64,000 nt of DNA from a virus (taxonomy: Duplodnaviria; Heunggongvirae; Uroviricota; Caudoviricetes): IMG/VR virus record IMGVR_UViG_3300009500_000011, positions 104,585-168,584 of that record; one strand, given 5' to 3'. The notes beneath the pieces are model-generated. The model ran no database searches. It was not told the origin of the DNA and saw nothing but the letters and a program-made list of their open reading frames with translations. Made by a program: the position numbers and the translations under genes. Shown one piece after another: positions 5,813-62,652 of this stretch; the first letter of the stretch is position 1, and each line of letters begins with the position of its first letter.

Positions 5813-6513
5813 ATTTAAAATTTAAAAATCGAATTGCTTTAATTGGTAGAATGGGTAGTGGAAAATCAGAAATTGCAAAACACTTTGTCAATAGTTTAAA
5901 TTTTAAGCGTGTTGCTTTAGGTGATGCTTTAAAAGAAGAAATTGTTAATTATGGTTTAATACCTGGAAGTATTATTGAAAAAAGTAGAGATAGAAAAACA
6001 CTTCAAGATTGGGGACAACATCGCAGAGGTGAAAAAGAACGTTTTGTTTTTAAATCCAAACTTTTTCATAATAAAAATAAAGTTTCTGATGGTGTAACCA
6101 ATTATATAAATTATCAAGGGAAAAAATTAAGTCTTGTAACATACAATGTTGATTCATATAATATGATTTCCAAAAGTTTTGGTGAATGTTACCTAGATTA
6201 TTGGATTGATTTATTGATGCCAAATGTCAAAAAATTAATTGCTCAAGGTAATTATGTAATTAATGATGATATTCGTCGTCAAAATGAACTTGATGCTTTT
6301 AAATATATGGGATTTACTACTGTAAAAATATCTGTTGAAAACGATATAAGATATAAACGATTAAAAATTAGAGATAATCAATCTGATTTTGATGAGTCTA
6401 TTATGAATGATATTTCAGAAAATGAAATAGATTCATTAATTGCTGATTTCGATATTAGTAATAATGGTACAATTGAAGAAACTTTGAGTACACTATATCA
6501 ATATATAATGTAA
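5809..6513 (+). CDS. P-loop nucleotide/nucleoside kinase (dNMP-kinase-like)
   Basis: N-terminal Walker A IALIGRMGSGKSEIAK; start overlaps the upstream stop (ATGA). Confidence 0.45.
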   Translation: MNLKFKNRIALIGRMGSGKSEIAKHFVNSLNFKRVALGDALKEEIVNYGLIPGSIIEKSRDRKTLQDWGQHRRGEKERFVFKSKLFHNKNKVSDGVTNYINYQGKKLSLVTYNVDSYNMISKSFGECYLDYWIDLLMPNVKKLIAQGNYVINDDIRRQNELDAFKYMGFTTVKISVENDIRYKRLKIRDNQSDFDESIMNDISENEIDSLIADFDISNNGTIEETLSTLYQYIM

Positions 6514-6542
6514 CATTTAATTAAATATTCCCTATAATATTA

Positions 6543-6572
6543 AAGAAGAAATTTTAATTTTCTTCTTTTTTC
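6543..6572 (+). terminator. intrinsic terminator
   Basis: AAGAAGAAA-TTTTAA-TTTCTTCTT + TTTTT. Confidence 0.55.
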
Positions 6573-6605
6573 TATTCTTTATATCGAAAGAAGTAATTTA
6601 TTATA

Positions 6606-6983
6606 GTGAGAACATTTGACGACGTAAGTCCAGAAAAACATAAAGAAATATCTATAAAAGTTTTAAAATATTGGTTAAAAAACATTTATAAGATGGATGG
6701 TTTATCAACTCCGTCTAATGGTGTTATCAAGCAAGAAGATATTTTATTGCAATCTCAACAACTAGGTAATGTTTTTTGTTTAAAATTAGATATTACTGCT
6801 GCAATTGATACGTTACCACTTCGCTTAAAAAAAATTGTTTATCTTCATTATATAATTGGTTTCCCGGTTAGTAAAATTTGTTTAATGTTAGGGTTTAAAT
6901 TTCGTGTTGACCTTTATAGAAGACTTGACGAATGCTTTGAAATAATGTATGATTTTTTAGGACCTAATTGGTTACGTTCTTAA
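6606..6983 (+). CDS. sigma-70 region-4-like HTH protein (possible second subunit of a bipartite sigma)
   Basis: LPLRLKKIVYLHYIIGFPVSKICLMLGF...LYRRL resembles sigma region 4.2 (LxxRER...HTH); GTG start. Confidence 0.35.
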   Translation: MRTFDDVSPEKHKEISIKVLKYWLKNIYKMDGLSTPSNGVIKQEDILLQSQQLGNVFCLKLDITAAIDTLPLRLKKIVYLHYIIGFPVSKICLMLGFKFRVDLYRRLDECFEIMYDFLGPNWLRS

Positions 6984-6994
6984 TAAGAATCAAT

Positions 6995-7546
6995 ATGGAA
7001 AATCTTTTAAAATCAGCAAAAAATATAGGATGTATTGGGACTAAGGATGATTTAGACGAGATTAGAATTAAAACTTGTCTTTTGATTGGTTATTGGATAG
7101 CAAAACAAAATAAGTTTGTTCATAGTGGAAACGCTAAAGGTTGTGATAATTTGTATGCAACTGGAGCAAATAATGTTAATCCATCTTTGGTTCACTTATA
7201 TTTAAGTGATAATAAGCATAATTCTAAATTCATAGTAGATGGAAATATTTTACATTATCAAGAAGATTTTCCTGATTGGTCTGGAATTGCTGAAATGTAT
7301 CATCCGCGATACAATTTCTTGCCGAAATATGCACAAAAACTGTTTAATCGTAATGCTGGAATTGTTCTTGCTTCGGATTTAGTTATCGCTATGCCAAGTA
7401 GATTAAAGTCTTGGGGTGGTGGAACAGGACATGGAATGAAGATAGCCAAAGGTCTTGGTATCCCAGTTATTAATTTGAGCCGAGAAGAAGAAAGAGAAGA
7501 AATTATTAAATTTATATTAAATGATAGCGACGTTTTTTCGTTGTAA
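6995..7546 (+). CDS. SLOG-family (DprA/LOG-like) Rossmann-fold protein
   Basis: GGGTGHGMKIAKGLGIPVINL resembles the DprA/Smf-LOG C-terminal motif; start set at ATG 6995. Confidence 0.3.
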   Translation: MENLLKSAKNIGCIGTKDDLDEIRIKTCLLIGYWIAKQNKFVHSGNAKGCDNLYATGANNVNPSLVHLYLSDNKHNSKFIVDGNILHYQEDFPDWSGIAEMYHPRYNFLPKYAQKLFNRNAGIVLASDLVIAMPSRLKSWGGGTGHGMKIAKGLGIPVINLSREEEREEIIKFILNDSDVFSL

Positions 7547-11146: not shown

Positions 11147-11659
11147 ATGGATTTTTTAGTTGGCGATATATTAGTTTTAAAACAAGATGCTCTTGACCTT
11201 GAAGATAAAACTGGCAAAACAATTTTATATCCCGCAGGTTCCGAAGCTGAAATTATACAAATAAAAAATGAAAATGAATATCATCTGCAATTTCCAGATG
11301 CCAAAATATGGCCTCATGACTTGGCAACTTTATTGATTTTCTTTAATCGTAAAAAAGATGGTAAAAATGTTTATACTCGCCAGGTTTCAGAGTATGGTAC
11401 GCCACCAAAAGAGCTTGCTTTTTATATACCTAGAGAAGTTGATTGGCGTAAAAACTATAGGTATACTGTCAGAATTGAAGCAGAAGATTGTGGCTTTAAA
11501 AAATTGATTTGTCCTAGTTGTTTCAATGACCTGGGAGAAAATGGCGAACCAGATAATGAAGGTTTGCAAAAATGTCAAAAATGTGGTACAATGGTTCTCC
11601 CGATAGACCCATTAACATTCAAGTATCCACATGATGACGGAAATGAACACACAACTTAA
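11147..11659 (+). CDS. hypothetical protein with C-terminal CxxC...CxxC zinc ribbon
   Basis: CPSCFNDLG...CQKCGT. Confidence 0.35.
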   Translation: MDFLVGDILVLKQDALDLEDKTGKTILYPAGSEAEIIQIKNENEYHLQFPDAKIWPHDLATLLIFFNRKKDGKNVYTRQVSEYGTPPKELAFYIPREVDWRKNYRYTVRIEAEDCGFKKLICPSCFNDLGENGEPDNEGLQKCQKCGTMVLPIDPLTFKYPHDDGNEHTT

Positions 11660-12935
11660 GAGTAATTCTCAAAAATTCTTAGAAGCAGCAAATTGGGCTC
11701 TTGTAAAAGAACGCTTTGGCGAAGATACAGGAGTTAATATTCGTCGCGCTTCTATAGATAATGTGCAAAATATTACGCTTTTCAATGGTTCAAAAGGTTT
11801 ACTTTTTGATGGATATTCGTTTCCTGAACAAGAACATCTTAAAGGCTTGATTGTTCACGAAGTATTAGGAAGCGCACATTCGGTTATAGCGGCATGTTTT
11901 CCTAAATTCTATAACTATGGCGAACCTGCTGAAAAACAAAAGCATCTTGAATACTTAAATGACGATTCTATGAGTGTGTTATTTGCTAAGAAAGAGGATG
12001 GAGTAAATATTCGTCCTTATTTCAATGCTGCAACAAATAGAGTTGAATTTGCTACGCGCGGAACCTTGCTTGTTGTTTCTGATATTGAAGAAACGTCTAA
12101 TCTTGATTATGGCGCAATGGCTCGTTCAATTGCAGAAGAAAAATATCCAATTCTTTTGGATGAGGAATTTGTAAAGAAATACTCTTGTATTTTTGAAATG
12201 ATTCATCCTGATTCCAAAATTCTTACGGATTATGGACAAAGAAAAGACCTTATTCTTCTGTCAGTATTTGATTTAGAAAATAACTGCTATGAATTTTCGC
12301 GTGAATGGGTAGCATCTTGGGCAAATATAATTGGGTTAAATTATGTTGAATATTGGTTTGACCAATATGCGCCTGTTTCTGAATTTTCTTCTTTAGTTGA
12401 AAAACTACTTAAAAAATGGAACGAAACGGATGTAGAAGGTTCTGTTGTTATATTTGTAAACTCTGAAGCAGAACCTGTATATCGTCTTAAAGTTAAAAAT
12501 GCTTATTATTTACAAATGCTTCGACTTGCAAAATTTTGCACTTTGAAGAATTTAGTCTCAATCATGGAAGAAAATAACTTTTCAAATTGGGAACAACTTC
12601 GTGCATATTTGTACGAAAGCCCTTCAATGAATGAAGAATTAGAAATGGCATATAAGGCTCATTTTGATGTATATGAAAATTGGTTAGCAAATCTTGAAAT
12701 CGAAAAACAAAATGTTTTAAAAGAATATCAAGAATTACCTTCTTTCGAATTACAAAAAGATTTTGCTTTATACATCTTAAAAGATGGCGCTTATCCATAC
12801 AATCCGCTATTCTTTGCTATTCGCAAATGGTTAGCAGAAGCCAAAAATCCTAATTTAGAACAATTCTTTGAAGAAAATGTTAAAGCAACAGTAATGTTGA
12901 AGAAAATCTATCCACTATCGGAAGTAGAGGAATAA
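11631..12935 (+). CDS. RNA ligase (T4 Rnl1-like nucleotidyltransferase)
   Basis: Motif I FAKKEDGVN (KxDG), motif IV-like DVEGSVVIF, motif V-like YRLKVK. Confidence 0.55.
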   Translation: MMTEMNTQLKSNSQKFLEAANWALVKERFGEDTGVNIRRASIDNVQNITLFNGSKGLLFDGYSFPEQEHLKGLIVHEVLGSAHSVIAACFPKFYNYGEPAEKQKHLEYLNDDSMSVLFAKKEDGVNIRPYFNAATNRVEFATRGTLLVVSDIEETSNLDYGAMARSIAEEKYPILLDEEFVKKYSCIFEMIHPDSKILTDYGQRKDLILLSVFDLENNCYEFSREWVASWANIIGLNYVEYWFDQYAPVSEFSSLVEKLLKKWNETDVEGSVVIFVNSEAEPVYRLKVKNAYYLQMLRLAKFCTLKNLVSIMEENNFSNWEQLRAYLYESPSMNEELEMAYKAHFDVYENWLANLEIEKQNVLKEYQELPSFELQKDFALYILKDGAYPYNPLFFAIRKWLAEAKNPNLEQFFEENVKATVMLKKIYPLSEVEE

Positions 12936-12936
12936 C

Positions 12937-13443
12937 ATGGGTTTATTTGATTATGTAATTTGTGATTATCCTTTACCTGATTCATATAAAGGGAGTATTA
13001 AGTTTACAACTAAAGACTTAAATTCTTTTATGAATACTTTTACTATTACTGAATCAGGTCAACTTTTAGAACACAAATTTCATTTTGAAGAAGTTCCTGA
13101 AGAAGAACGTCCTAAATTTAATACACCCGAATGGAATTCTGATAACGAAACAATTAAAACTTGGACACGCTTAATGGGTTCAAAGATTCAAGTATTTGAT
13201 GGCTTGGAACCCTACCTTTACACAGGTGCTGTTTGTTTTTACGGTTCAAATTTAGATAGTTGTAATTCGGATGGATATTATACTACAGAAAATGATGAAC
13301 CTTATGAATACAAAGAATACATTGCTTTGTTTAAAAATGGTATGTTAATTAACATTATTGAAAATAATGAAAAAGACAATGAATTTTTTACTCCAGAATG
13401 TTTTTTAACACAAAAACAGTATAAAGAAAAATATAATGAATGA
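12937..13443 (+). CDS. hypothetical protein
   Basis: Track ORF between the ligase and the Thg1-like gene. Confidence 0.4.
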   Translation: MGLFDYVICDYPLPDSYKGSIKFTTKDLNSFMNTFTITESGQLLEHKFHFEEVPEEERPKFNTPEWNSDNETIKTWTRLMGSKIQVFDGLEPYLYTGAVCFYGSNLDSCNSDGYYTTENDEPYEYKEYIALFKNGMLINIIENNEKDNEFFTPECFLTQKQYKEKYNE

Positions 13444-14197
13444 CTCGCTTGGCGACCGAATGAAAACATATTATGAAGATGTGACGCGGCATTACTTGCC
13501 TCGGCGAACTCATACAATTATTCGGTTAGATGGAAAATCTTTTCATACGTATACAAAAAAATTAGCAAGACCATTTGATGCTGGTTTGATTGAAGATATG
13601 CAAAAAACCACAATTCGACTTTGTGAGAATATTCAGGGCGTTGTTCTTGGTTATACGCAATCTGATGAAATATCTCTTGTTTTATGTGATTATAAAGAAA
13701 AAGAAACTGAATCCTTTTTTAAAGGTAATATTCAAAAAATTTGTTCAGTATCTGCAAGTATGGCTACTGCATTCTTCAATGCTTTTAGACAAGCCCGTAA
13801 TTTTGAAGGTGGTCCAGCATTTTTTGATGCTAGAGTATTTACTATTCCAGAAAAGGTAGAAGTTCTTAATTATCTTATTTGGAGACAAAAAGATGCAACA
13901 AGAAATTCTATTCAAATGGCCGCACAATCTGTTTATTCTCATAAAGAACTTAATAAAAAGAAGTGGTCTGATTTAAATGAAATGCTTTTTCAGAAAGGTA
14001 TTAATTTTAATGATTATTCTTCTTCTGAAAAACGTGGTTCTTTAATTGTGAAAGAATATTTTGAAGGGGAAGCCTATGATAAGCGTAAGCAAGAAAATGT
14101 TATAGTTACTCGGTCGCGTTGGATTGTAGAACCTGAAACACCTCTTTTTACTGCTGAAGAAAATAGAGATTTATTTGAAAGGTATTTATATAAATAA
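13436..14197 (+). CDS. Thg1-like protein (tRNA-His guanylyltransferase / 3'-5' polymerase family)
   Basis: N-terminal GDRMKTYYE...HTIIRLDGKSFHTYTKK and SDEISLV match the Thg1/TLP signature. Confidence 0.6.
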   Translation: MNDSLGDRMKTYYEDVTRHYLPRRTHTIIRLDGKSFHTYTKKLARPFDAGLIEDMQKTTIRLCENIQGVVLGYTQSDEISLVLCDYKEKETESFFKGNIQKICSVSASMATAFFNAFRQARNFEGGPAFFDARVFTIPEKVEVLNYLIWRQKDATRNSIQMAAQSVYSHKELNKKKWSDLNEMLFQKGINFNDYSSSEKRGSLIVKEYFEGEAYDKRKQENVIVTRSRWIVEPETPLFTAEENRDLFERYLYK

Positions 14198-17234: not shown

Positions 17235-17308
17235 ATTTTGAGTTGCGCTAGAATAAAGTTACTTCGTCTGTAAAACGAGGAATCCGGGTTCGAGTCCCGG
17301 TCGGAATC
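17235..17308 (+). tRNA. tRNA-like element / possible pseudo-tRNA (anticodon loop CTGTAAA = GTA)
   Basis: Acceptor ATTTTGA/TCGGAAT (with G-U pairs), anticodon stem TTCGT/ACGAG, canonical T-arm CCGGG-TTCGAGT-CCCGG. No convincing D-stem; no CCA. Confidence 0.3.
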
Positions 17309-18372: not shown

Positions 18373-18615
18373 ATGCAAAAAATTCAAATTGTTTATACAG
18401 ATAATCCAAGTGAAATAGAAGCAGTTTTTATTGATGGTAAGATAGTTGCTGCTTGGTATTTAAGTGATGCAAGTTGGCGTGGTGAATATTTTAATGGATT
18501 CATGGGAAAACTTGGTATTGAAGTAGATGATTATAGTCGAGCAACTTCGGAACAAATTGAATCTATTAAAGATTGGTTTAATTTAGATGAAGATGAATTA
18601 CTTTATGCCTTATGA
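18373..18615 (+). CDS. hypothetical protein
   Basis: Track ORF; its 3' end overlaps the tRNA-Gln 5' end. Confidence 0.4.
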   Translation: MQKIQIVYTDNPSEIEAVFIDGKIVAAWYLSDASWRGEYFNGFMGKLGIEVDDYSRATSEQIESIKDWFNLDEDELLYAL

Positions 18616-18676
18616 TGTAATGGTAGCATAAGATGCTCTGAACATCTTTGTAATCGTTCGAGTCGATTTAAGGCAG
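18606..18676 (+). tRNA. tRNA-Gln (anticodon CTG)
   Basis: Acceptor TGCCTTA/TAAGGCA, stem AGATG/CATCT, loop CTCTGAA, T-arm AATCG-TTCGAGT-CGATT, G73, no CCA. Confidence 0.6.
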
Positions 18677-18684
18677 CGATTTAA

Positions 18685-18943: not shown

Positions 18944-18948
18944 ATCAT

Positions 18949-19020
18949 TGGAGTGGTAGCATAGAGGTAATGTACCGTTTTATCGCGAGCGGGATGAAGG
19001 TTCGAGTCCTTCCCCTCCAG
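18949..19020 (+). tRNA. tRNA-like gene with 8-nt anticodon loop (TTATCGCG) - identity unclear
   Basis: Acceptor TGGAGTG/CCCTCCA (one mismatch), D-arm GCAT-AGAGGTA-ATGT, stem CCGTT/AGCGG enclosing 8 nt, canonical T-arm GAAGG-TTCGAGT-CCTTC. Confidence 0.35.
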
Positions 19021-19040
19021 TTCTTTTTTAAAAAGAAATC

Positions 19041-23091: not shown

Positions 23092-23174
23092 GCTGGGGTG
23101 GCTCAGAGGCGACAGCGCCAGTTTTGTAAACTGGTATACAAACAACGTGGGTTCGAGTCCCACCCCCAGCCCCA
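23092..23174 (+). tRNA. tRNA-Thr-like (anticodon TGT) with 12-nt unpaired variable region
   Basis: Acceptor GCTGGGG/CCCCAGC, stem CCAGT/ACTGG, loop TTTGTAA, variable TATACAAACAAC, T-arm GTGGG-TTCGAGT-CCCAC, CCA encoded. Confidence 0.5.
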
Positions 23175-23388: not shown

Positions 23389-24129
23389 ATGTCAAAAACA
23401 ATAAAACGAACAGTCACAACCATCGTTGAAGAAGAAGTTGTGCCTACTAATGAAGGTCTTTATACCGAAGTATTAGTAGATATGTCAGGTTCTATGTCAA
23501 ATGTTTGGGACTCTACAATTGCCGGTATCAATGAATTAAAAAACGGCCCATCTGGTTCCAATGATACAATGTCATTGACGTTTTTTGATAACGTTGTTGA
23601 ACGTCCATATATCAACAAATCTGTTAAATCAATTCCAGATGTAACTCGCGAATTATATCATCCACGCGGTTCTACTGCGTTACTTGATGCAATTGGAACA
23701 ACAATTAGAAGTGTTGAAAATATGAAAGATAGACCTTCTAAAGTTTTGTTTGTCATCATAACTGATGGTCAAGAAAATGCAAGTCGTGAATTTAATAATT
23801 CTCAAGTCTCTGCTCTTATTCGTGAAAAAGAAGCACAAGGCTGGGAATTTCTTTATATGGGAGCAAACCAAGATGCTTGGTCAACTGCTACGAATATTGG
23901 TATTCAAGGTGTAGGTAAATTTAATTTTGCTTCTAATCCTACTGTTACTGCTGCTGCTTTTAAAGGTGCTTCAGCAACACGTTCTGCTTATTCTAGTGGT
24001 ATGTCATACAATGCATCGGTTGGTGCGACATACAGCACGTTAAATGCTGTAGCACCAGAACTTAATGCAAACTATCTTGACAATAGTGGAAACACTTCTA
24101 TAATCGACACAGATATTACAAAGATTTAA
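23389..24129 (+). CDS. von Willebrand factor A (vWA) domain protein
   Basis: MIDAS-like VLVDMSGSMS ... TALLDAIG ... VIITDGQEN. Confidence 0.55.
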   Translation: MSKTIKRTVTTIVEEEVVPTNEGLYTEVLVDMSGSMSNVWDSTIAGINELKNGPSGSNDTMSLTFFDNVVERPYINKSVKSIPDVTRELYHPRGSTALLDAIGTTIRSVENMKDRPSKVLFVIITDGQENASREFNNSQVSALIREKEAQGWEFLYMGANQDAWSTATNIGIQGVGKFNFASNPTVTAAAFKGASATRSAYSSGMSYNASVGATYSTLNAVAPELNANYLDNSGNTSIIDTDITKI

Positions 24130-25103: not shown

Positions 25104-25188
25104 GGGACTTTGGCAGAGCGGTTATGCAACGGACTCTTAATCCGTGAGGGAAACCTCTATGTGGGTTCGACCCCCACAGGTCCCACCA
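25104..25188 (+). tRNA. type-II tRNA (15-nt variable arm) carrying a Lys-type anticodon loop CTCTTAA (CTT)
   Basis: Acceptor GGGACTT/AGGTCCC, stem ACGGA/TCCGT, variable arm GAGGGAAACCTCTAT, T-arm GTGGG-TTCGACC-CCCAC, A73-CCA. Confidence 0.5.
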
Positions 25189-25197: not shown

Positions 25198-25274
25198 GGG
25201 ATAGTAGGAGAATTGGCATATCTACCACGTTTAGACCGTGGGTTCTGTGGGTTCAAGTCCCACCTATCCTACCA
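25198..25274 (+). tRNA. class-I tRNA (5-nt variable loop) carrying a Leu-type anticodon TAG
   Basis: Acceptor GGGATAG/CTATCCT, stem CCACG/CGTGG, loop TTTAGAC, T-arm GTGGG-TTCAAGT-CCCAC, A73-CCA. Confidence 0.55.
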
Positions 25275-25587: not shown

Positions 25588-26253
25588 ATGCCTTTAAAAA
25601 TCGTGTGTATTTCTGATACTCACAATTCATTAAATCAACTTGAACTTAATGGATTAAAAATGCCAGAAGCAGATGTTCTTATACATGCTGGTGATTTAAC
25701 ATTTAAAGGCCAACTTCCAGAAATTTCAAAAGCAAATTATCATTTAGGGAAAATTAAACATAAGTATAAACATGTGGTTTTTGTTCCAGGAAATCATGAT
25801 TTTCTTTTTCAAAAAGATGAAGCAATTGCAAGGGCTGTATTGTCTAATGCAACCGTATTAATTGACCAACCTTTAGAAATTGAAGGTTATAAATTTTACG
25901 GTAGTCCTTGGCAACCCTGGTATCAAGATTGGGCATTTAATTTTAAAAAATATTCAGCAGGAGGAAAAGAACAGTCAATTCGTATTTGGGGAGCTATTCC
26001 TGAAGAGACTGATATTTTAATTACTCATGTCCCGCCATATATGATGATGGATAAAACTGAATATGGTGAAAATATTGGTGATGCTTGGCTTGCTAAACGT
26101 TTGAAAGAACTTCCTAATCTTAAACTTCATGTTTTTGGGCATGTTCATGAAAGATACGGTAAAGTAGAAGCAAAAATTACCTTTGTTAATGCAGCTTCTA
26201 TGAACCGTAGATATAGCATTGTGAATCCACCAATTGTTATAGATTTGCCTTAA
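25588..26253 (+). CDS. calcineurin-like metallophosphoesterase
   Basis: CISDTHN, GDLTFKG, GNHD, GHVH motifs. Confidence 0.6.
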   Translation: MPLKIVCISDTHNSLNQLELNGLKMPEADVLIHAGDLTFKGQLPEISKANYHLGKIKHKYKHVVFVPGNHDFLFQKDEAIARAVLSNATVLIDQPLEIEGYKFYGSPWQPWYQDWAFNFKKYSAGGKEQSIRIWGAIPEETDILITHVPPYMMMDKTEYGENIGDAWLAKRLKELPNLKLHVFGHVHERYGKVEAKITFVNAASMNRRYSIVNPPIVIDLP

Positions 26254-26746: not shown

Positions 26747-26833
26747 GGCCGAATGGCGGAATTGGTAGACGCGGCAGACTCAAAATCTGTTGTCCGAAAG
26801 GGCGTGTGGGTTCAAGTCCCACTTTGGCCACCA
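26747..26833 (+). tRNA. tRNA-Leu (anticodon CAA), type II
   Basis: Acceptor GGCCGAA/TTTGGCC, stem GCAGA/TCTGT, loop CTCAAAA, long variable arm, T-arm GTGGG-TTCAAGT-CCCAC, A73-CCA. Confidence 0.7.
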
Positions 26834-26862: not shown

Positions 26863-27309
26863 GTGATTAACTTTATTAAAAAGATTTTTAAACTAGGTAG
26901 TACCCAACCGAAGAATATTTCGTCAAATTCAAAACCATCGACAGCGAGTAATTCAATTAATTACAATGTTCATCCCATTGTGATTGAGCGACCTCTTCCG
27001 ACTCCTAAGCCGGTGTATTACGATGATACATCTTCGCAATTAACGAATATGTTGTTAATGGAAGAGATTATTGATTCAAGTTATCAACCTACCACAACGG
27101 TAATTGTAGAACCACCAGCACCTGTTGATAATTACAATAACTATTCGGCACCAGAACCTTCGCCGTCTTCGTCGCCAAGTCCATCATATGATAGCGGTTC
27201 ATCATATTCAGATAGTAGTTATTCGTCGTCTTCTTCATGGTCTTCTTCGTCATATGATAGCGGTAGTAGTAGTTCGTCTTCATCATATGATAGTGGTGGT
27301 GGTTGGTAA
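26863..27309 (+). CDS. Ser/Tyr/Pro-rich low-complexity protein
   Basis: C-terminal SSSPSPSYDSGSSYSDSSYSSSSS repeats; flanked by two tRNA-Leu-type genes. Confidence 0.35.
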   Translation: MINFIKKIFKLGSTQPKNISSNSKPSTASNSINYNVHPIVIERPLPTPKPVYYDDTSSQLTNMLLMEEIIDSSYQPTTTVIVEPPAPVDNYNNYSAPEPSPSSSPSPSYDSGSSYSDSSYSSSSSWSSSSYDSGSSSSSSSYDSGGGW

Positions 27310-27320: not shown

Positions 27321-27403
27321 GGGCAAGTGGTGGAACTGGTATACACGTATGTCTAAGAAGCATATGCGAAAGCATGTGGGTTCGAGTCCCACCTTGCCCA
27401 CCA
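27321..27403 (+). tRNA. type-II tRNA, Leu-like body, anticodon loop CTAAGAA (reads AAG; A34 unusual)
   Basis: Acceptor GGGCAAG/CTTGCCC, 7-bp anticodon stem, variable arm TGCGAAAGCAT, T-arm GTGGG-TTCGAGT-CCCAC, A73-CCA. Confidence 0.5.
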
Positions 27404-27425: not shown

Positions 27426-27881
27426 TTGATGTTAGATGATTTAATTACGCCACTTAATTCTTTTCAAGAATTAAAAAATATTCTTGAAGAAAATCCTAGA
27501 CTACATTATAGCAAAGGTTATGCAGGTAATATTTCTACGATACCTGGTCCTGTAATTCTTTATCCAATTATTGGTGTGGTTAGAAATAAGGCTAATTGGC
27601 GTTTGATAAATGGCAAAATTTATGGCGGAGAAATTTTAATAAAAGTTTTTGCAGAAGTCGATTATACAACTACTGTTTATCCTTTAGATTATTTACTTGA
27701 TGATTTAAATGAACTTACTCTTGAAGAATTAGCACGACCTATTTTGATTTCTCCATGTAAGAGAAATCAAAATATCGAAGAAGTCACTCTATATGCAGAG
27801 TGTGCAGGAATTTTAACTCGACCAGATGAATTTGATACCAACCTATATTTAGGTTTTGGAAAATTGCCAGAAATCATATAA
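27426..27881 (+). CDS. hypothetical protein
   Basis: Track ORF. Confidence 0.4.
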   Translation: MMLDDLITPLNSFQELKNILEENPRLHYSKGYAGNISTIPGPVILYPIIGVVRNKANWRLINGKIYGGEILIKVFAEVDYTTTVYPLDYLLDDLNELTLEELARPILISPCKRNQNIEEVTLYAECAGILTRPDEFDTNLYLGFGKLPEII

Positions 27882-27889: not shown

Positions 27890-27979
27890 GGGGATATGGT
27901 GAAATTGGTCAGACACAACAGGCTTAAACCCTGTCGGGCGTTATATCCCATGTCGGTTCGAATCCGACTATCCCTACCA
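27890..27979 (+). tRNA. tRNA-Leu (anticodon TAA), type II
   Basis: Acceptor GGGGATA/TATCCCT, stem ACAGG/CCTGT, loop CTTAAAC, 17-nt variable arm, T-arm GTCGG-TTCGAAT-CCGAC, A73-CCA. Confidence 0.75.
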
Positions 27980-30462: not shown

Positions 30463-30888
30463 ATGTTTTCTGAAGAACTTGCCACTTTACCTTTTGGTTT
30501 GAAGATGGCTCAAAAAGTATTTCAAAATACTCCTGATAAAAAGAAGCGGGTAACTGCTTGTTTTGTGAAAGGAGGTTTATTTCTTGCTGACACCAATCAA
30601 TTTAAGACCGACCCTACAGGCCATAAATTGAATAGTCGGGGTTGTCGCCTTCATGCTGAAATGAAAGTTCTAAAAAGACTTCGTTTCCAAGAAACAAATG
30701 GTGGCAAGTTGTTTGTTTATAGAGAAGATATGTCCGGTGCAATTAAAAATGCCAGGCCGTGTCGTGCTTGTAGAAAAATGATAGTAGAATGTGGAATTAA
30801 CACAGTTTACTATACAATAGAAGAAGGATACATAAAAGAGAAGATAAACAACTCAGCAGATTATATAGGCTCAGATAATGAATATTGA
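30463..30888 (+). CDS. dCMP/cytidine deaminase (zinc-dependent)
   Basis: HAEMKVL and PCRACRKM (H-x-E ... PC-xx-C) motifs. Confidence 0.6.
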   Translation: MFSEELATLPFGLKMAQKVFQNTPDKKKRVTACFVKGGLFLADTNQFKTDPTGHKLNSRGCRLHAEMKVLKRLRFQETNGGKLFVYREDMSGAIKNARPCRACRKMIVECGINTVYYTIEEGYIKEKINNSADYIGSDNEY

Positions 30889-31186
30889 TGATAAGTGCGA
30901 AACATGCGATGGTAAAGGTACATGGGAAGTACCCTGGGATGAAGTTGATGATGCAACCAAGGCTATGCTTGGTGGCATTGATGACTTGATAAGTAAATTT
31001 CCTGGTTCTAAATTGGGTCCATTAGTTTATAATTGTCCTGATTGTCAACAAACTGGTTCGCAAGCCGTTCGAGAACAATGGTCAATAAATCGTTTAGACC
31101 CTAAAAAACATGAGTATGTTTTTCAATGTACTGATGGTGACCCTTGTTGGGAATGTAAAGCAGAGAAAAAAGAGCATTTAAAATGA
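30878..31186 (+). CDS. zinc-ribbon protein
   Basis: CETCDG ... CPDCQ ... CWEC. Confidence 0.35.
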   Translation: MNIDDKCETCDGKGTWEVPWDEVDDATKAMLGGIDDLISKFPGSKLGPLVYNCPDCQQTGSQAVREQWSINRLDPKKHEYVFQCTDGDPCWECKAEKKEHLK

Positions 31187-32001
31187 TTGATTATACAACA
31201 AAACCGGATTTAGGAAAATTATCTGAATCAGAATTTTTTGATTTAGATAATCCGCCTTTTGATATTCAAAAACATTGTTTATATTCAGTCATATCTGGTT
31301 CAAAAGCATATGGATTAGATACGCCTACAAGCGATACTGATATTCGTGGAGTTGTATATTTACCAGAAAGAATGTTGCTTGGTTTAGGTAGATTTGAACA
31401 AATTGAAAATCAAAGCAAAGATATTTGTTATTACAGTCTACAAAAACTTTTTAATTTGGCATTAAAAAATAATGTTCATGCAATGGAAATGCTTTGGATG
31501 CCAAAAAGAACGGTTAACTTTATACATCCTTTATTTGAGCAAGTTCTAGATAATAAAAATTTATTTATGTCTAAACGCATTGCATATACTTGTGGTGGAT
31601 ATGCTTTCCAACAAGTTAAGGTTGCCTTTACAAAGATGAAAAATAAGACTGGTAGAGTTAGTTTATTAGAACAATTTGGCTATGATACTAAATTTATGAG
31701 TCATAGTATTCGTATTTATAGAATGGCCCGTGAAGCATTAGAAACAGGTTTTCTAAATGTCTATCGACCTGATAGAGAGTTTTTACTTGATGTTAAGGTT
31801 GGTAAATATAAACTTGAAGATATTGTTGTTATGGGTAAAAATTCAGAAGGTAAAGATACTTTTGTTGGTGGATTATTAGCAGAAGAATTGCGACTTTTTA
31901 ATGAAGCACTTGCAAAAACAAAATTACCAACCGACCCTCCTTTCCAAAAAATTGAAAATCTTTTAATTAAAGTTCAAAAAGAAGCTTTATCTTTTAATTA
32001 A
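31183..32001 (+). CDS. nucleotidyltransferase-fold protein (pol-beta superfamily)
   Basis: GSKAYGLDTPTSDTDIRGV fits the GS-x(9-13)-D-x-D motif. Confidence 0.4.
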   Translation: MIDYTTKPDLGKLSESEFFDLDNPPFDIQKHCLYSVISGSKAYGLDTPTSDTDIRGVVYLPERMLLGLGRFEQIENQSKDICYYSLQKLFNLALKNNVHAMEMLWMPKRTVNFIHPLFEQVLDNKNLFMSKRIAYTCGGYAFQQVKVAFTKMKNKTGRVSLLEQFGYDTKFMSHSIRIYRMAREALETGFLNVYRPDREFLLDVKVGKYKLEDIVVMGKNSEGKDTFVGGLLAEELRLFNEALAKTKLPTDPPFQKIENLLIKVQKEALSFN

Positions 32002-34465: not shown

Positions 34466-35905
34466 TTGAACAAAATTTACGACCTTATCATTATTGGAAC
34501 TGGCCCAGCAGGTTTTTTCTGTGCAATAGATTTAGTTAGAAAAGGATATACAAATATCCTTATGATTGATAAAGGTTCTCTTCGTACAGGTAAATCAGAC
34601 GAAAATGTGACAGAAGGATGGGCAGGGGCTGGGGCACATTCCGATGGTAAGGTCAATATGACTCATAAAGTCGGAGGAATCTTAGCCGACGTTATTGGGT
34701 TAAAGCGTTTCCATGAGTTATTAGAAAAACAAGACCAAATGTGGCTTGATTTTTCTCCAACAAATGAACAAAAAAAATTACGTCAACAAAAATCTCCTGA
34801 TGCTGATTTAGATGTAAGGTTATTCGTTCCAACTGATGAATCTAAAATTTTAAGAGCTAAAGCCTTAGCAAATCACATGGAACTTGAAACATATCCAATA
34901 AGACATTTGGGCACAGATAATATGTTAGATTCAACTAACAATATGCTCGAATATCTTAAATCTAATGGTGTTGAAGTAGTATTAGAGGCTGAAGTAAAGC
35001 AAATCTGTAAATATAAAAATGAAGAAGAATTTGTAGTAAGAGTTCAAAAAAAAGATAGTTGGTGTGACCCAGAATTTGGAGACTATGAACTTGAACATTA
35101 TGACGGGAAGAATGTTCTTATTGCTACAGGACGCTCTGGGGGGCATTTCTTCCGTGAAACCATGCAATGCTTAGATATTCCTATGTTAAATAATGGCGTT
35201 GATATTGGTGTTCGTGTCGAAGTTCCAAATGAGATTACAGATGGACTCTTAAAAGCCGGTATTTATGAACCTAAAATGCTTTATAGAACACCAACATTTG
35301 ACGATTCCGTTCGCACATTTTGCTGGTGTAATAGTGGATTTGTTGCAATAGAAGAATATCGTGATACCGGAATTAAGACAGTTAATGGTCATTCCTATGC
35401 CGACAAGAAATCTAACAATACAAATTTTGCTTTACTTGTTACAAAAACATTTACTTCGCCATTCGATAACCCACAAGCATATGCAGAATCAGTTTCAAGA
35501 ATGGCCAATCTTTTATCGGGTAATTCTGTTTTAGTTCAAAGATATGGAGATTTTAAAGCAGGTAGACGTACAACAGAAAAAAGATTAAATGAAGGAGCCC
35601 TTGTTCCAACTCTTGATGCAGTACCAGGAGATTTATCTCTTGCTATTCCTTATCGTCAAATGTTGGCAATCGGAGAAATGTTAGAAGCTATGGACAAAGT
35701 TTTACCAGGTATTGCAAGTAAATACACCTTGTTATACGGTATTGAAGCTAAATTCTATAGCAATCGAGTTAATATTGATTCAAATAGTATGACAGAAATT
35801 AAAGGTCTTTATGTTGCTGGAGACGGTTCTGGATGGACAAGAGGGTTAAATCAAGCGGCAATTCAAGGACTTGTTGTTAGTGAAGGAATTTTAAATGCAA
35901 AATAA
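34466..35905 (+). CDS. FAD/NAD(P)-binding oxidoreductase (COG2509-like)
   Basis: N-terminal dinucleotide fold DLIIIGTGPAGFFCAIDL and C-terminal GLYVAGDGSG. Confidence 0.55.
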   Translation: MNKIYDLIIIGTGPAGFFCAIDLVRKGYTNILMIDKGSLRTGKSDENVTEGWAGAGAHSDGKVNMTHKVGGILADVIGLKRFHELLEKQDQMWLDFSPTNEQKKLRQQKSPDADLDVRLFVPTDESKILRAKALANHMELETYPIRHLGTDNMLDSTNNMLEYLKSNGVEVVLEAEVKQICKYKNEEEFVVRVQKKDSWCDPEFGDYELEHYDGKNVLIATGRSGGHFFRETMQCLDIPMLNNGVDIGVRVEVPNEITDGLLKAGIYEPKMLYRTPTFDDSVRTFCWCNSGFVAIEEYRDTGIKTVNGHSYADKKSNNTNFALLVTKTFTSPFDNPQAYAESVSRMANLLSGNSVLVQRYGDFKAGRRTTEKRLNEGALVPTLDAVPGDLSLAIPYRQMLAIGEMLEAMDKVLPGIASKYTLLYGIEAKFYSNRVNIDSNSMTEIKGLYVAGDGSGWTRGLNQAAIQGLVVSEGILNAK

Positions 35906-44878: not shown

Positions 44879-44904
44879 CTTTACAGTTTCTTTACATAGC
44901 ATTG

Positions 44905-44933
44905 TTGCAAATATTGGTATGCTTGTCTATAAT
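44905..44933 (+). promoter_or_regulatory. promoter TTGCAA-N17-TATAAT driving the noncoding region upstream of Ro60
   Basis: 5/6 -35, 17-nt spacer, perfect -10. Confidence 0.5.
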
Positions 44934-45036
44934 CTCTAATAGAGTTGAAGCTGAAGGAAACGAAGCAGGTGGTTTAAATGCCATCGGAAGCAAGTGCAAG
45001 TCTTGCCATCTCTGCCATAAAAAACTAAATAAATTT

Positions 45037-45070
45037 GAGTTGCGTTAGAGTACGGTTACTTCTTAATTGA
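45037..45070 (+). repeat. repeat copy R1 (tTGCG-N-TAC-G-TTACTTCTTaatTGA)
   Basis: gagttgcgttagagtacggttacttcttaattgac, shared with R2/R3. Confidence 0.5.
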
Positions 45071-45278
45071 CATATACCTAATGTCCCACCTCAATAAAGG
45101 AGTAAAATCTTTTATTGGGCTAGTCACCTGAGTCGTGGTGAGACGCATTGTGCAAATGTTAGTGGAGGCTCGTAAAATAAGCCTAGAACTAAAAATTCTT
45201 AGACTTAAGATGTAAAAATCAAAAGTCGGTCCCGTACTTGCCCTCTTCTCTCAAATTTATTTTAAAAATTAAAAACTT

Positions 45279-45312
45279 GGGTTGCGACAGATTACAGATA
45301 CTTCTTATATGG
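45279..45312 (+). repeat. repeat copy R2
   Basis: gggttgcgacagattacagatacttcttatatgg. Confidence 0.5.
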
Positions 45313-45367
45313 AATAAAAAAGCTGTATTCGCTACCTTCTCCCGAGTATAAATTTTATAATATTTAA

Positions 45368-45400
45368 ATTGCGTTAATTACAGATACTTCTTGTATATTG
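45368..45400 (+). repeat. repeat copy R3 (followed by tRNA-like T-loop GGTTCGAGTCC)
   Basis: aaattgcgttaattacagatacttcttgtatattgg. Confidence 0.5.
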
Positions 45401-45519
45401 GTTCGAGTCCATTAAGTGTAGTCGGTACACAACTGTAGTTGTTCCATTCGTTTAAATTTTATTTAATCCTTGGGAATATATTTCTCAAGGATTTTTTTGT
45501 TGTCATAAAGGAAAAAAGA

Positions 45520-47205
45520 ATGAAATACAATACTAAAACAGTAAATGCTGGTCCAGGAACAAAAATGATAAATCTTGCAGGCGGAGAAGCTTTTAAAGTT
45601 GATAATCGTACTGCATTATATTTAACTTCTGCAACTTCTTTAGGTGGCGGTCAAGGAAATAAATATTATGTTTCTGCAAATCAAGAATACAAAAATATTC
45701 TTGAACTAATTGAAAAGGTTTCCGCTCAAGACCCAGAATTTATTTTCCAATTGGCTGCATATTGTCGTCAAGATTTATACCTTCGTAGTATTCCAACGGT
45801 ATTATTTATCGAAGGTATTCGTGCAATGCATAAGCAAAAAAAGGCCAATGCACCATATCCAGTAGATGCATCTAAGTATGCAAATGCTATTTTTGGTCGT
45901 GCTGATGAAATTGTTGAAGCAGTTGCATATTGGCTTGGAGTTGAAGGCCATCACAAATTGCCTTCCCCTCTTCGTAAATCTTTGACCATTGCTTTAAATT
46001 CATTTGATGAATACCGCTTGCTTAAATATAATCAAGAAGATAAGCAAGTTACATTTAAAGATATTGTTCGTCTTGTGCATCCAGAACCAAAAACTGATGT
46101 GCAAAGTGCAATTTTCAAATACTTCATCAAGGATGAAATCAGTCCAGAATTAATGCCAAAGGCAACTGCCCGCAAGGCTTTGCTTTCACGTACTCAATTT
46201 GATGAAGAAGCACAACGCTTGATGAGAGATTCATCTGCTACTTGGGAAACTGTAATTGCTAAATTCGGTTCGACTAAAGAAATTTGGGAAGCAGTTATTC
46301 CAAATATGGGATACATGGCTTTATTACGTAATCTTAATAATTTTCTTAAAAAAGAAGTAGATTTAGATTTAGTAATTCCTCGCCTTGTGAATCCGCAAGA
46401 AATTCGTAAAAGCAAGCAATTGCCTTTCCGTTTTTACACAGCAATGAAACAACTTGGTGTAGAAGATAACAATAAGAATTCTACGATGACATATTATGGA
46501 TATTCCGATTCAGTAAAAACAGCATTTGAAAAATGGCGTAATGTAAATTCTAGCGATGGAATTTCTCGTTTACGTAATGCTCTTGGTGTTGCTATGAATA
46601 TTGCAGTAGAAAATGTTCCTCACCTTTCAGGTCGTACCGTTGTTGCGGCAGACCTTTCTGGTTCTATGAGTCAACCTCTTAATAACAAATCAAATGTAAC
46701 TTATCGTGAAATCGCTTGTATTATGGCTGGTATTGCTGGTTCAATAGCACCAGATAATGTAATTTGTGGATTTGGTTGTTCATTTGCTGTTGCTAAAAAA
46801 GGCAAAGATATTCTTGAAACTGCAAATAATATTGATAAATTAAATGTTGGAATGTCAACGGATGCATGGCGTATTCTTGATTACTTGCTTACAAACAAAA
46901 TTTTTGTAGATAGAGTCATGTATTTTACAGATACACAATGTTATAATTCATATGGGGGCGCAAATTTAAACGAACTTTGGAAAAAATACAAAGTTCTTTG
47001 CCAATCAACTGGTAAAAAAGTTCCTGTTCTTTATGAAGTAAATCTTGCAGGTGGTAATACATCTAGTTTTAATTCTGAACAAAGAGTTGCTACCATTGGT
47101 GGATGGTCTGAAAGAATTTTTGATTTAATTACTACTTATGAAACTGACCCTCGTCAAGCAATAAGTAAAATTAAAGAAAAATATTCAGATTTAGTATCTG
47201 TTTAA
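45520..47205 (+). CDS. Ro60/TROVE-domain protein with C-terminal vWA/MIDAS
   Basis: Size, helical N-terminal repeats and C-terminal VVAADLSGSMS MIDAS motif as in Ro60/Rsr orthologues. Start set at ATG 45520 (AAAGGAAAAAAGA upstream). Confidence 0.5.
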   Translation: MKYNTKTVNAGPGTKMINLAGGEAFKVDNRTALYLTSATSLGGGQGNKYYVSANQEYKNILELIEKVSAQDPEFIFQLAAYCRQDLYLRSIPTVLFIEGIRAMHKQKKANAPYPVDASKYANAIFGRADEIVEAVAYWLGVEGHHKLPSPLRKSLTIALNSFDEYRLLKYNQEDKQVTFKDIVRLVHPEPKTDVQSAIFKYFIKDEISPELMPKATARKALLSRTQFDEEAQRLMRDSSATWETVIAKFGSTKEIWEAVIPNMGYMALLRNLNNFLKKEVDLDLVIPRLVNPQEIRKSKQLPFRFYTAMKQLGVEDNNKNSTMTYYGYSDSVKTAFEKWRNVNSSDGISRLRNALGVAMNIAVENVPHLSGRTVVAADLSGSMSQPLNNKSNVTYREIACIMAGIAGSIAPDNVICGFGCSFAVAKKGKDILETANNIDKLNVGMSTDAWRILDYLLTNKIFVDRVMYFTDTQCYNSYGGANLNELWKKYKVLCQSTGKKVPVLYEVNLAGGNTSSFNSEQRVATIGGWSERIFDLITTYETDPRQAISKIKEKYSDLVSV

Positions 47206-58130: not shown

Positions 58131-58213
58131 CGGCGGGTTCCCGTAGCGGCGAACGGTCTGCTTTTACATGGCAGCATACCACATCGTGGGTTCGAGTCCC
58201 ACCCTGCCGACCA
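58131..58213 (+). tRNA. tRNA-Val-like (anticodon TAC) with ~11-nt unpaired variable region
   Basis: Acceptor CGGCGGG/CCTGCCG, stem CTGCT/GGCAG, loop TTTACAT, variable CATACCACATC, T-arm GTGGG-TTCGAGT-CCCAC, A73-CCA; a consensus promoter lies 10 nt upstream. Confidence 0.45.
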
Positions 58214-58685: not shown

Positions 58686-58776
58686 CTCGGTGTGGTGTAA
58701 CTGGATAGCACAAAACGCTACGAACGTTTAGGGAGCCGCAAGGCCATTGGGGGTTCGAATCCCTCCATCGAGGCCA
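58686..58776 (+). tRNA. type-II tRNA (Ser-like body, G73) carrying an Arg-type anticodon loop CTACGAA (ACG)
   Basis: Acceptor CTCGGTG/CATCGAG, D-arm GTGT-AACTGGATA-GCAC, perfect stem AAACG/CGTTT, variable arm AGGGAGCCGCAAGGCCATT (GCC-GCAA-GGC hairpin), T-arm GGGGG-TTCGAAT-CCCTC, G73-CCA. Confidence 0.5.
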
Positions 58777-60891: not shown

Positions 60892-61110
60892 ATGTCATTT
60901 AGAAAATTTGTATTTGAAAGAAGTGAAGATGTAAGCGGAGTATCAGGAATCGGTATTGTTGCTGAAGGCGTAGAATTTTCAAATGGTAAAACAGTAATTG
61001 CTTGGTGCGTTCCTGGAAAACCAAATTCAGCAGTTATATACGATAATATACACGAAGCAATAGAAGTACATGGTCACGAAGGCCGAACAGTAATAAAATG
61101 GATAGATTAA
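60892..61110 (+). CDS. hypothetical protein
   Basis: Track ORF. Confidence 0.3.
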   Translation: MSFRKFVFERSEDVSGVSGIGIVAEGVEFSNGKTVIAWCVPGKPNSAVIYDNIHEAIEVHGHEGRTVIKWID

Positions 61111-61111
61111 G

Positions 61112-61513
61112 ATGGATGAATTTGAAGAAATTATTGATGTTTTAGTCCGAAAAATTGAACTATCTGATGATAGATATGTTTTGGTTATAAATGGTAAATA
61201 TCAATTAGTAGTTGATGCAGATTGTTGCTCTGAAACATGGATTGAACATATTATTGGTGTAAAACAATTATTAGGTTCAAAAATAAGAAGTGTAAAAAGA
61301 TTAGAATTTCCATCTGAATATATTGAATGCTTGACGAAAGCAGAACCATCTGCCGACTATACACAATATTATGGATTAGCTATAACTTCTAGAAATGGGC
61401 AAATGATTATTGATTTTCGTAATCGGAGCAATGGTTATTATGGTGGAAGTATTCAGTTGCTTATTAGCGAAAAAATTCCTTCAAATTTAAGATTGATAAC
61501 CGAGGATGAATAA
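61112..61513 (+). CDS. hypothetical protein
   Basis: Track ORF. Confidence 0.35.
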   Translation: MDEFEEIIDVLVRKIELSDDRYVLVINGKYQLVVDADCCSETWIEHIIGVKQLLGSKIRSVKRLEFPSEYIECLTKAEPSADYTQYYGLAITSRNGQMIIDFRNRSNGYYGGSIQLLISEKIPSNLRLITEDE

Positions 61514-61515
61514 TA

Positions 61516-61716
61516 ATGTTCTGCGGTAAAAAACCAACTCAAGATGAAATAATGAAAATCAAAGAGTTTGCTGCTTTCTTAAGAAATATAAATTCTATCG
61601 AAAAAGATGAGAACTTGACAAAAGAAGAAAAAAAAGATAAACTAAACGAAATTATAGCGCAAGCAAATAATAAAATACAAAAAGAATGGGAAAATGGCAG
61701 AAAAAAACGACGATAA
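61516..61716 (+). CDS. hypothetical protein
   Basis: Track ORF. Confidence 0.3.
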   Translation: MFCGKKPTQDEIMKIKEFAAFLRNINSIEKDENLTKEEKKDKLNEIIAQANNKIQKEWENGRKKRR

Positions 61717-61924
61717 GTTTGAACTAAAAGGTTTTGTACTTAAATCACATCCCGGAGCAACTTTTTCAGTTCGATTAGAAGGAATAGAAAAAGATGTTCT
61801 TTGTCATCTTTCTGGGAAAATGCGAATGAATAATATTCGTGTTCTAGAAGGTGATACTGTGGATGTTGAAATGGATGTATATGATTTATCTAGGGGTAAA
61901 ATCATATTTAGGTATAAGAAATAG
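61694..61924 (+). CDS. hypothetical protein
   Basis: Track ORF. Confidence 0.3.
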   Translation: MAEKNDDKFELKGFVLKSHPGATFSVRLEGIEKDVLCHLSGKMRMNNIRVLEGDTVDVEMDVYDLSRGKIIFRYKK

Positions 61925-62081
61925 ATGGTCGATAGACTATTACATTTTCTTCAAAATAAATATGTTCCCGCACTATGGGCAGTTTTATTAACAGTATGGT
62001 TAATTGGTGCTATAATTGATACAACTCCCAAAGTATATAATGTAATAAATTTAATAAATAAACAAATAAAGGTCAATCATC

Positions 62082-62360: not shown

Positions 62361-62361
62361 A

Positions 62362-62562: not shown

Positions 62563-62577
62563 TATATAAATAAATAT

Positions 62578-62652
62578 GGGGTTATCATATAGTGGCTATT
62601 ATGACGGTTTTGCAAATCGTTCACCTCAGTTCGACTCTGAGTAGCTCCACCA
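62578..62652 (+). tRNA. tRNA-Ala (anticodon TGC), second copy, G3:U70 present
   Basis: Acceptor GGGGTTA/TAGCTCC, stem ACGGT/ATCGT, loop TTTGCAA, T-arm CTCAG-TTCGACT-CTGAG, A73-CCA. Confidence 0.6.

Follow-up and report, generated by a model that had tools for sequence, protein, structure and literature searches.

Introduction

Does an A at the wobble position of a bacterial-type leucine tRNA mark a working decoder or an aberration? The question is raised by a tRNA gene in the stretch of phage DNA analyzed here, which is called the window below and comprises 64,000 nucleotides (64 kb). The original prediction described a type-II Leu-like tRNA with the anticodon AAG (A at position 34), regarded A34 as all but restricted to tRNA-Arg(ACG) among bacteria, and left a choice between TadA-like editing and a decoding oddity. 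The assumption of confinement is outdated, as the tRNA-Leu(AAG) of Streptococcus pyogenes and Oenococcus oeni was shown experimentally to be fully edited to IAG (PMC11472039). Because the tRNA considered here is encoded by a phage, inside an array of 32 tRNA genes, the question moves to whose deaminase, if any, performs the editing.

Recombinant S. pyogenes TadA edits tRNA-Leu(AAG), and the recognition consensus YUAMGRA has been derived (PMC11472039); with the recombinant E. coli enzyme, the S. pyogenes tRNA-Leu(AAG) stayed unedited in vitro (PMC11472039), so that editing depends on the TadA specificity of the host. AAG is the norm in several Lactobacillales families, where it takes over from GAG; no family has both anticodons, and nearly all bacterial entries for Leu(AAG) in GtRNAdb come from Bacilli (PMC13249217). 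The known carriers include S. mutans besides the two species above, and the families Streptococcaceae and Lactobacillaceae. With the Enterococcus tRNA-Leu(GAG), leucine is added at CUC ~10 times as fast as at CUU, and the streptococcal IAG tRNA is equal at both codons. An orthogonal tRNA carrying the AAG anticodon in an Arg2-type loop was ~15% edited in E. coli, and unedited A34 tRNAs in vivo read mainly U-ending codons, with a U:C ratio of 76:24 for the AAG anticodon (PMC11066159).

Results

The gene and its anticodon register

ARAGORN places a tRNA-Leu(aag) gene at exactly 27321..27403 (+), with the sequence GGGCAAGTGGTGGAACTGGTATACACGTATGTCTAAGAAGCATATGCGAAAGCATGTGGGTTCGAGTCCCACCTTGCCCACCA, and the Rfam model RF00005 matches 27321..27400 with 56.7 bits (gathering threshold 29; E = 1.4e-9 for the whole window). 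In the CM alignment, the stem UAUGU/GCAUA encloses the loop C-U-A-A-G-A-A (27353..27359, +) with maximal posterior probability. The loop corresponds to C32 U33 A34 A35 G36 A37 A38; the anticodon is A27355 A27356 G27357, and U33 and A37 occupy their canonical positions. ARAGORN and the CM alignment thus agree on the register, and the anticodon AAG, with A34 in the loop CTAAGAA, is as originally predicted. An alternative register, one that would yield a UAA, CAA or UAG anticodon, was looked for and does not exist, because a shift by one base breaks the stem and puts C at the invariant U33.

The ARAGORN cloverleaf comprises a 7-bp acceptor stem, the T stem GTGGG/CCCAC, the discriminator A73 and an encoded CCA. 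The D arm consists of a 3-bp stem, GUG/CAC, which is typical of tRNA-Leu, and of a loop with A14 and G18G19; the variable region UGCGAAAGCAU (UGC-GAAA-GCA-U) has 11 nt and a 3-bp stem, which is short for class II. The identity set of bacterial LeuRS includes a long variable arm, A73 and a 3-bp D stem with A14 and G18G19, and all of these elements are present in the gene. One structural detail of the prediction has to be corrected: the proposed 7-bp anticodon stem is the canonical stem of 5 bp, U31.G39 among them, extended by G26.U44 and C25-G45, and C25 pairs with G10 in the D stem. The unconstrained MFE fold differs from the cloverleaf and is modestly better than those of shuffled sequences (z = -2.9), as is usual in tRNAs. 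A scan for promoters and terminators around the gene returned values at the level of shuffles. The type-II Leu-like assignment is borne out by ARAGORN, the Rfam score and the cloverleaf alike: 27321..27403 is a real, conserved class-II tRNA-Leu gene with an AAG anticodon.

The phage and its tRNA set

The window has a GC content of 32%, with nearly all ORFs on the + strand, and corresponds, in reverse complement, to the first 64 kb of contig Ga0209611_10000090 (98 kb; JGI metagenome 3300027860). Samples in which the phage occurs are JGI 3300027860, SRR5829579, ERR11571142, ERR10755936 and SRR27973230. A syntenic relative is the 274,834-bp ENA contig ERZ25039479 contig_29692, with fragments in four further runs, which indicates that the lineage is that of an uncultivated jumbo phage; no close relative was found among deposited phages. 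The encoded proteins include a DnaG-type primase, a class II/B12 RNR, AAA ATPases, a flotillin-like protein, PhoH, metallophosphatases and, next to the RNR in the nucleotide-metabolism category, a nucleoside 2-deoxyribosyltransferase. The RNR is ~29% identical to those of crAss-like phages, and a Thg1-like protein is 45-49% identical to proteins of Bacillus phages. Neither the flanking ORF 27426..27881 nor ORF 23389..24129 has relatives in IMG/VR, and the metallophosphatase 25588..26253 has only distant ones there (34-42%), none with a Leu(AAG) gene. Shine-Dalgarno-like motifs precede 21 of 58 ORFs, with ~7 expected by chance and with start-codon calls that are crude; this weak usage is suggestive evidence against a Firmicute host, the only group with proven editing of Leu(AAG).

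ARAGORN finds 32 tRNA genes in the window, 29 of which exceed the Rfam threshold, and CCA is encoded in 29 of the 31 listed tRNAs. Leucine is represented, besides AAG, by three further anticodons, all on the + strand: UAG (25198..25274, a 77-nt type-I tRNA reading CUA/CUG; Rfam 54.3 bits), CAA (26747..26833, reading UUG; 59 bits) and UAA (27890..27979, reading UUA/UUG; 56.8 bits), each called by ARAGORN. The only other A34 tRNA of the window is tRNA-Arg(ACG) at 58686..58776 (+; ARAGORN, Rfam 49.4 bits), the loop of which, CTACGAA, is that of a canonical TadA substrate. The other boxes are served by Ile GAU, Val GAC, Thr GGU, Gly GCC, Ala UGC and Pro UGG, and there is an 87-nt class II tRNA-Tyr, as in bacteria. 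Eukaryotes, too, have a tRNA-Leu(AAG) that decodes through I34, a substrate of ADAT2/3 that is found as well in giant viruses of algae; the other boxes of the window differ in being of the bacterial G34 type. A eukaryotic set of the ADAT type would show A34 in the Ile, Val, Thr, Ala, Pro and Ser boxes as well, a class-I tRNA-Tyr and tRNA genes lacking CCA. A eukaryotic-virus tRNA set is excluded by the G34 anticodons of Ile, Val, Thr and Gly, the class-II tRNA-Tyr, the encoded CCA, and the dense, phage-like genes on one strand.

Unusual neighbors in and around the array

Several other genes of the array have unexpected features. The tRNA-Arg(ACG) is 91 nt long, with a long class-II-like variable arm (a stem of ~5 bp), C1-G72 and G73, and has a single mismatch in 91 positions versus the relative; bacterial tRNA-Arg belongs to class I. 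The presence of A20, C35 and G36 makes an ArgRS identity plausible, and a long arm and G73 are also recognition features of SerRS. Conversely, the tRNA with the Leu anticodon UAG has a short class-I variable loop, with G1.U72 and A73; short "Leu" tRNAs occur in other phage-like arrays, for example, the 76-77-nt tag, taa and caa genes of locus L278 and a 74-nt Leu(caa) in GiJojo. Three tRNAs on the + strand are over-long for class I, namely, Thr(UGU) (23092..23174, 83 nt), Lys(CUU) (25104..25188, 85 nt) and Val(UAC) (58131..58213, 83 nt). The Thr(UGU) site is occupied in the relative by a different, 76-nt gene, which indicates that genes of the array are being replaced.

A tRNA-like gene at 18948..19021 (+) has an 8-nt anticodon loop, in which ARAGORN reads the 4-base anticodon 'atcg'; it scores 35 bits with Rfam, has three mismatches versus the relative, and could be a frameshift-type or a defective tRNA. 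A truncated-looking second Tyr(GUA) of 67 nt (17242..17308, +) and Gln(CUG) (18606..18677, +) are the only genes lacking an encoded CCA, and both fall below the Rfam gathering score. Between the window's Leu(CAA) and its counterpart in the relative (L259, 9739..9825), 25 of 87 positions differ. In the relative, an HNH endonuclease gene adjoins Leu(CAA), and in one strain an RRXRR-domain gene as well; the window's counterpart of the HNH site is a Ser-rich ORF (26863..27309). The divergence of Leu(CAA), together with the HNH gene, suggests an exchange of tRNA cassettes driven by a homing endonuclease. One strain of the relative carries two IS605 OrfB/TnpB (Cas12f-like) genes inside the tRNA array (L268, 1..605 and 5880..7073). 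An FAD-dependent protein has 479 aa in the window (34466..35905) and 831 aa in the relative (L254, 13979..16474), where a region with a LAGLIDADG domain looks like an intein or homing-endonuclease insertion.

Around the array lies a cluster for RNA repair and tRNA maturation (11631..12935, 13436..14197, 31183..32001 and 45439..47205, all +), comprising a T4 Rnl1-type RNA ligase, the Thg1-like protein, which resembles tRNA-His guanylyltransferase, RlaP, and a Ro60/TROVE protein with a vWA domain. Upstream of the Ro60 gene, a gap of 560 nt (44879..45438) offers room for a possible Y-RNA-like partner; no match there exceeds the Rfam threshold. A 76-aa IF1/eIF-1A-like protein (61694..61924, +) is 100% identical in both lineages discussed below, and its neighbors (60892..63738) encode Acb5, of an anti-CBASS family, DUF7448 and NADAR. 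The relative's genes just past the position of the window end include those for Clp_N, NAMPT and a nucleotidyltransferase, possibly a module for NAD salvage.

Conservation and codon usage

Seven further contigs, which come from at least six sequencing runs and two phage lineages, carry the Leu(AAG) gene with 83 of 83 positions identical, so that it is neither a chance match nor a sequencing error. The two lineages share 86.9% identity over the 1.5 kb downstream of the gene and 91.4% over a block of 8 kb; under neutrality at 91.4% identity, the probability of zero changes in 83 nt is ~5e-4. Judging from this comparison, the gene is under purifying selection. It should be noted that the ortholog is carried by only these two, closely related lineages. 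The relative has the same order of tRNA genes, Lys(CUU)-Leu(UAG)-Leu(CAA)-Leu(AAG)-Leu(UAA), and the neighboring tRNAs are equally conserved (Leu(UAG) and Leu(UAA) are identical), except for Leu(CAA), with its 25 mismatches, and Thr(UGU). In its conservation, Leu(AAG) thus behaves as the other working tRNAs of the array.

In 76 non-overlapping ORFs, which cover 49 kb of the window, leucine is encoded 738 times by UUA (52% of Leu codons), 385 times by CUU (27%), 197 times by UUG (14%), 79 times by CUA (6%), 17 times by CUC (1.2%) and 14 times by CUG (1%); the ratio of CUU to CUC is 385:17, or ~23:1. Neither Leu(GAG) nor Leu(CAG) was found in the window's 64 kb or in the array of the relative, followed for 8.5 kb more than the window covers; this extra stretch adds only Arg(CCG). 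The search for GAG, CAG and TadA covered ~75 kb of a genome of ~275 kb. In the sampled array, which has neither GAG nor CAG, Leu(AAG) is thus the sole dedicated reader of CUU, the second most used Leu codon (27%).

Other Leu(AAG) genes

The nearest database relatives of the gene are annotated tRNA-Leu genes with 74-81% identity, and the most similar tRNA-Leu genes of deposited phages have TAG, CAA or CAG anticodons, not AAG. When the tRNA was searched with its anticodon left free, there was no match in IMG/VR, JGI metagenome contigs or GTDB genomes, and no bacterial genome in GTDB shares both its anticodon arm and its T arm. A literature search gave no published account of Leu(AAG) in a bacteriophage.

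A generic class-II pattern with CTAAGA matched at least 120 IMG/VR loci; among the 120 matches listed, 10 loci hold real Leu(AAG) genes, 11 in all. In IMG/VR loci not selected for AAG, 2 of 62 Leu tRNAs are AAG. The viral total is at least 13 diverse genes on 12 contigs, and GAG is also present in only one of these 12 loci; as the pattern required A37, it was biased against GAG tRNAs, which often have G37, and these counts of AAG and GAG are lower bounds. The stems of the 13 viral genes, which were aligned together only, differ throughout and with compensated changes, and A73 and the CUAAG loop are kept; the genes thus belong to separate viral lineages. No relatedness at the protein level was detected between the window's phage and the 12 contigs or the phage-like contigs in metagenome bins described below. 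The carriers are uncultivated, mostly large phages, and the likeness to the window extends to class II structure, A73, a CUAAG(A/G)A loop, and a position adjoining Leu isoacceptors in a multi-tRNA array, usually lacking GAG. To our knowledge, such phage lineages have not been described as a class.

A pattern scan of 185,579 GTDB species genomes, which required the D-arm sequence GTGGYGGAA and A37 and is not a census, gave 13 matches, all of them real Leu(AAG) genes. Four of them belong to dense tRNA arrays, on contigs that had been binned as Weeksellaceae, Lutibacter, Myxococcota and "Pacearchaeota", and these are almost certainly phage contigs; the tRNA binned as "Pacearchaeota" (L280) has the same sequence as that of an IMG/VR locus (L125). 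The other nine (L273, L275-L277, L279 and L281-L284) are solitary and chromosomal-looking, with the loop CUAAGAA, in metagenome-assembled genomes (MAGs) of AT-rich Gammaproteobacteria and Bdellovibrionota. The occurrence of Leu(AAG) on other viral contigs and in MAGs outside Bacilli again contradicts the confinement of A34 to tRNA-Arg. Compared with the window's gene, the 13 MAG-contig genes agree at 57-69 positions over alignments 85-92 columns long; the best bacterial match, in a Bdellovibrionales MAG, agrees at 69 of 86 aligned positions (80%), an identity too low to name a donor or a host.

The Leu(AAG)/(IAG) tRNAs of Lactobacillales are, like the one considered here, of class II, with a YUAMGRA loop, in an AT-rich genome in which Arg(ACG) is the sole other A34 tRNA. 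There, AAG replaces GAG, and in the sampled array of the window's phage AAG likewise occurs without GAG; it coexists with Leu(UAG) in both systems, so that the reading of CUA is not its purpose. Unlike the Lactobacillales genes, the window's gene is phage-encoded and has 83 nt, versus 89 nt in S. pyogenes, with an 11-nt variable arm, and its sequence is not close to theirs. The Lactobacillales tRNA is edited by a TadA of relaxed specificity (PMC11472039; PMC13249217), whereas for the window's tRNA we infer editing.

A deaminase gene downstream

An ORF of 141 aa (30463..30888, +) is the only one with a zinc motif of the CDA fold in the six frames of the window. Taken alone, its sequence matches Pfam PF00383 (dCMP_cyt_deam_1, 31 bits), MafB19-deam weakly, and the PHROG dCMP deaminase; against the PDB, the single sequence retrieves the dCMP deaminase of cyanophage S-TIM5 and no TadA at E<=10. 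A HMMER search of 1.84 billion representatives gave 848 matches, a family of small deaminases. A profile built from 44 members of the family was run against the PDB and matched the dCMP deaminases of S-TIM5 (1.9e-13), T4 (Cd, 4.4e-12), S. mutans (1.8e-11) and human (DCTD, 9e-10); the best TadA (2nx8) followed at 1.3e-4. Across the family, NCBIfam reports mainly ComEB or dCTP deaminase, and TadA weakly in 7 of 44 members. AlphaFold on the single sequence reached a pLDDT of 40. From its sequence relationships, the ORF is classified as a nucleotide-metabolism enzyme of the dCMP-deaminase type, and its identity as TadA is rejected because the profile is nearer to dCMP deaminases (E = 2e-13 to 9e-10) than to TadA. 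No TadA was found in the six frames of the window, and none is annotated in the other parts of the lineage that were covered. As the nearby deaminase is not TadA, any editing of Leu(AAG) would presumably come from the TadA of the host.

Discussion

A probable functional CUU reader and its proposed host editor

The reading that we favor, with a probability of roughly 60%, is that of a functional, CUU-reading phage tRNA-Leu with A34 edited by the host's TadA. The phage-encoded tRNA would supply CUU decoding during infection, filling the place held by tRNA-Leu(GAG) in most bacteria and phages. The host's LeuRS would charge it with leucine; LeuRS does not use the anticodon, so that AAG is expected to have no effect on charging. 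The essential TadA of the host, which must edit the phage tRNA-Arg(ACG) as well, would most likely convert A34 to inosine, and the resulting tRNA-Leu(IAG) would read CUU well, and CUC and CUA too. The loop CUAAGAA fits the S. pyogenes TadA consensus YUAMGRA at 7 of 7 positions and differs only at nucleotide 35 from CUACGAA, the loop of the window's Arg(ACG), which is also that of E. coli tRNA-Arg2. An A34 or I34 reader suits this genome because CUU exceeds CUC 23-fold and G34 reads CUU by the slower G.U wobble. Of the two options originally proposed, TadA-type A-to-I editing stands as the natural expectation, and the decoding oddity does not, AAG being a known alternative for reading CUU and CUC.

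Alternative explanations

The tRNA could instead be a CUU specialist with an unmodified A34, if the host's TadA accepts only tRNA-Arg(ACG): A34 would form a Watson-Crick pair with U3, the rare CUC would be almost unread, and CUA and CUG would be left to the UAG tRNA. With 17 CUC codons versus 385 CUU, the reading of C is hardly needed, and unmodified AAG tRNAs do favor the U-ending codon (U:C 76:24; PMC11066159). The streptococcal Leu(AAG) is left unedited by E. coli TadA in vitro (PMC11472039), and the window encodes no TadA. Against this, nature offers very few unmodified A34 tRNAs, which are apparently selected against (bioRxiv 10.64898/2026.05.15.725136), the present loop fits the relaxed TadA consensus perfectly, one base away from the canonical substrate, and such a loop is partially edited even in E. 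coli (PMC11066159). Mollicutes without TadA have been described (PMC3711424). The natural cases of unmodified A34 resemble the window in a four-codon box, a very AT-rich genome and a dominant U-ending codon, but the organisms concerned lack TadA or the substrate loop, whereas the window has both a TadA-type loop and an Arg(ACG) that needs TadA. The tRNA-Thr(AGU) of Mycoplasma is a known case of a naturally unmodified A34. On balance, we consider the absence of modification possible but rather improbable; at a CUU:CUC ratio of 23:1, Leu(AAG) serves the phage with or without editing.

The remaining explanations are weaker. A34 might mainly serve to escape an anticodon nuclease or another tRNA-targeting defense of the host that cleaves CUY-reading tRNA-Leu, with the array supplying resistant replacements. 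Genes for RNA repair and counter-defense are indeed abundant (T4-type RNA ligase, RlaP, Ro60/TROVE, Thg1-like, metallophosphatases, Acb5 and NADAR), but codon usage is enough to explain the anticodon, no observation here ties A34 to cleavage, and a tRNA-Leu(GAG)-specific nuclease is not known to us. Phage tRNAs altered in the anticodon loop have been reported to escape nucleases of the host (PMC10264068). We regard an origin of A34 in nuclease escape as unlikely, and it would be compatible with host editing, not exclusive of it. A self-contained module, in which the phage's own 141-aa deaminase, 3 kb downstream, edits Leu(AAG), would fit the closeness of the two genes, the 90% conservation of the ORF in the relative, its H-A-E ... 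P-C-x-x-C zinc site and the weak match to MafB19-deam, a Pfam family that includes TadA. This is very improbable: the family profile favors dCMP deaminases over TadA (1.3e-4), in agreement with PHROG and NCBIfam, the motif C-x-K-M-I-x-x-x-G-I is of the dCMP-deaminase type, and the ORF lies among nucleotide-metabolism genes (nucleoside 2-deoxyribosyltransferase and RNR). Least credible is a decaying or accidental variant, i.e., a recent G34A or U34A change, a pseudogene or an assembly error, devoid of a selected function. A single transition turns GAG into AAG, and the array does hold odd tRNAs (the 67-nt Tyr, the 8-nt anticodon loop, and class-inappropriate arms). Yet seven independent contigs of two lineages, with flanks that are ~13% different, share the identical gene; its cloverleaf is perfect, its CM score is high, and its CCA is encoded. 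No other tRNA in the sampled array is a dedicated reader of CUY, and the AAG anticodon is found independently in many phage lineages; the conservation of the gene appears to refute this explanation largely.

Implications

The window's Leu(AAG) is a further example of a known tRNA type, not a decoding oddity, and A34 outside tRNA-Arg in a bacterial-type system need not mark an aberration. The exchange of GAG for AAG, so far described for lactic acid bacteria, recurs in the tRNA arrays of large uncultivated phages, and Leu(AAG) is also found in some Bdellovibrionota and Gammaproteobacteria MAGs, outside Bacilli. For phage biology, the gene offers a clear if small illustration of a tRNA fitted to the codon bias of its phage, in which CUU far exceeds CUC; the practical importance of the finding is modest.

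A more tentative proposal, to which we give limited credence, is that phages with Leu(AAG) infect hosts outside Lactobacillales, in which either A34 is truly unmodified or a relaxed TadA is widespread beyond Bacilli. Such hosts would fit because of the weak Shine-Dalgarno usage, the GC content of 32%, and the solitary Leu(AAG) genes in MAGs of Bdellovibrionota and AT-rich Gammaproteobacteria. If A34 were unmodified, this would be one of very few natural cases; if a relaxed TadA were involved, phage arrays would exploit it, and a phage Leu(AAG) would mark the specificity of the host's TadA. The full function of the tRNA probably depends on a modification enzyme of the host, and the gene could therefore help to constrain the host range of the phages that carry it.
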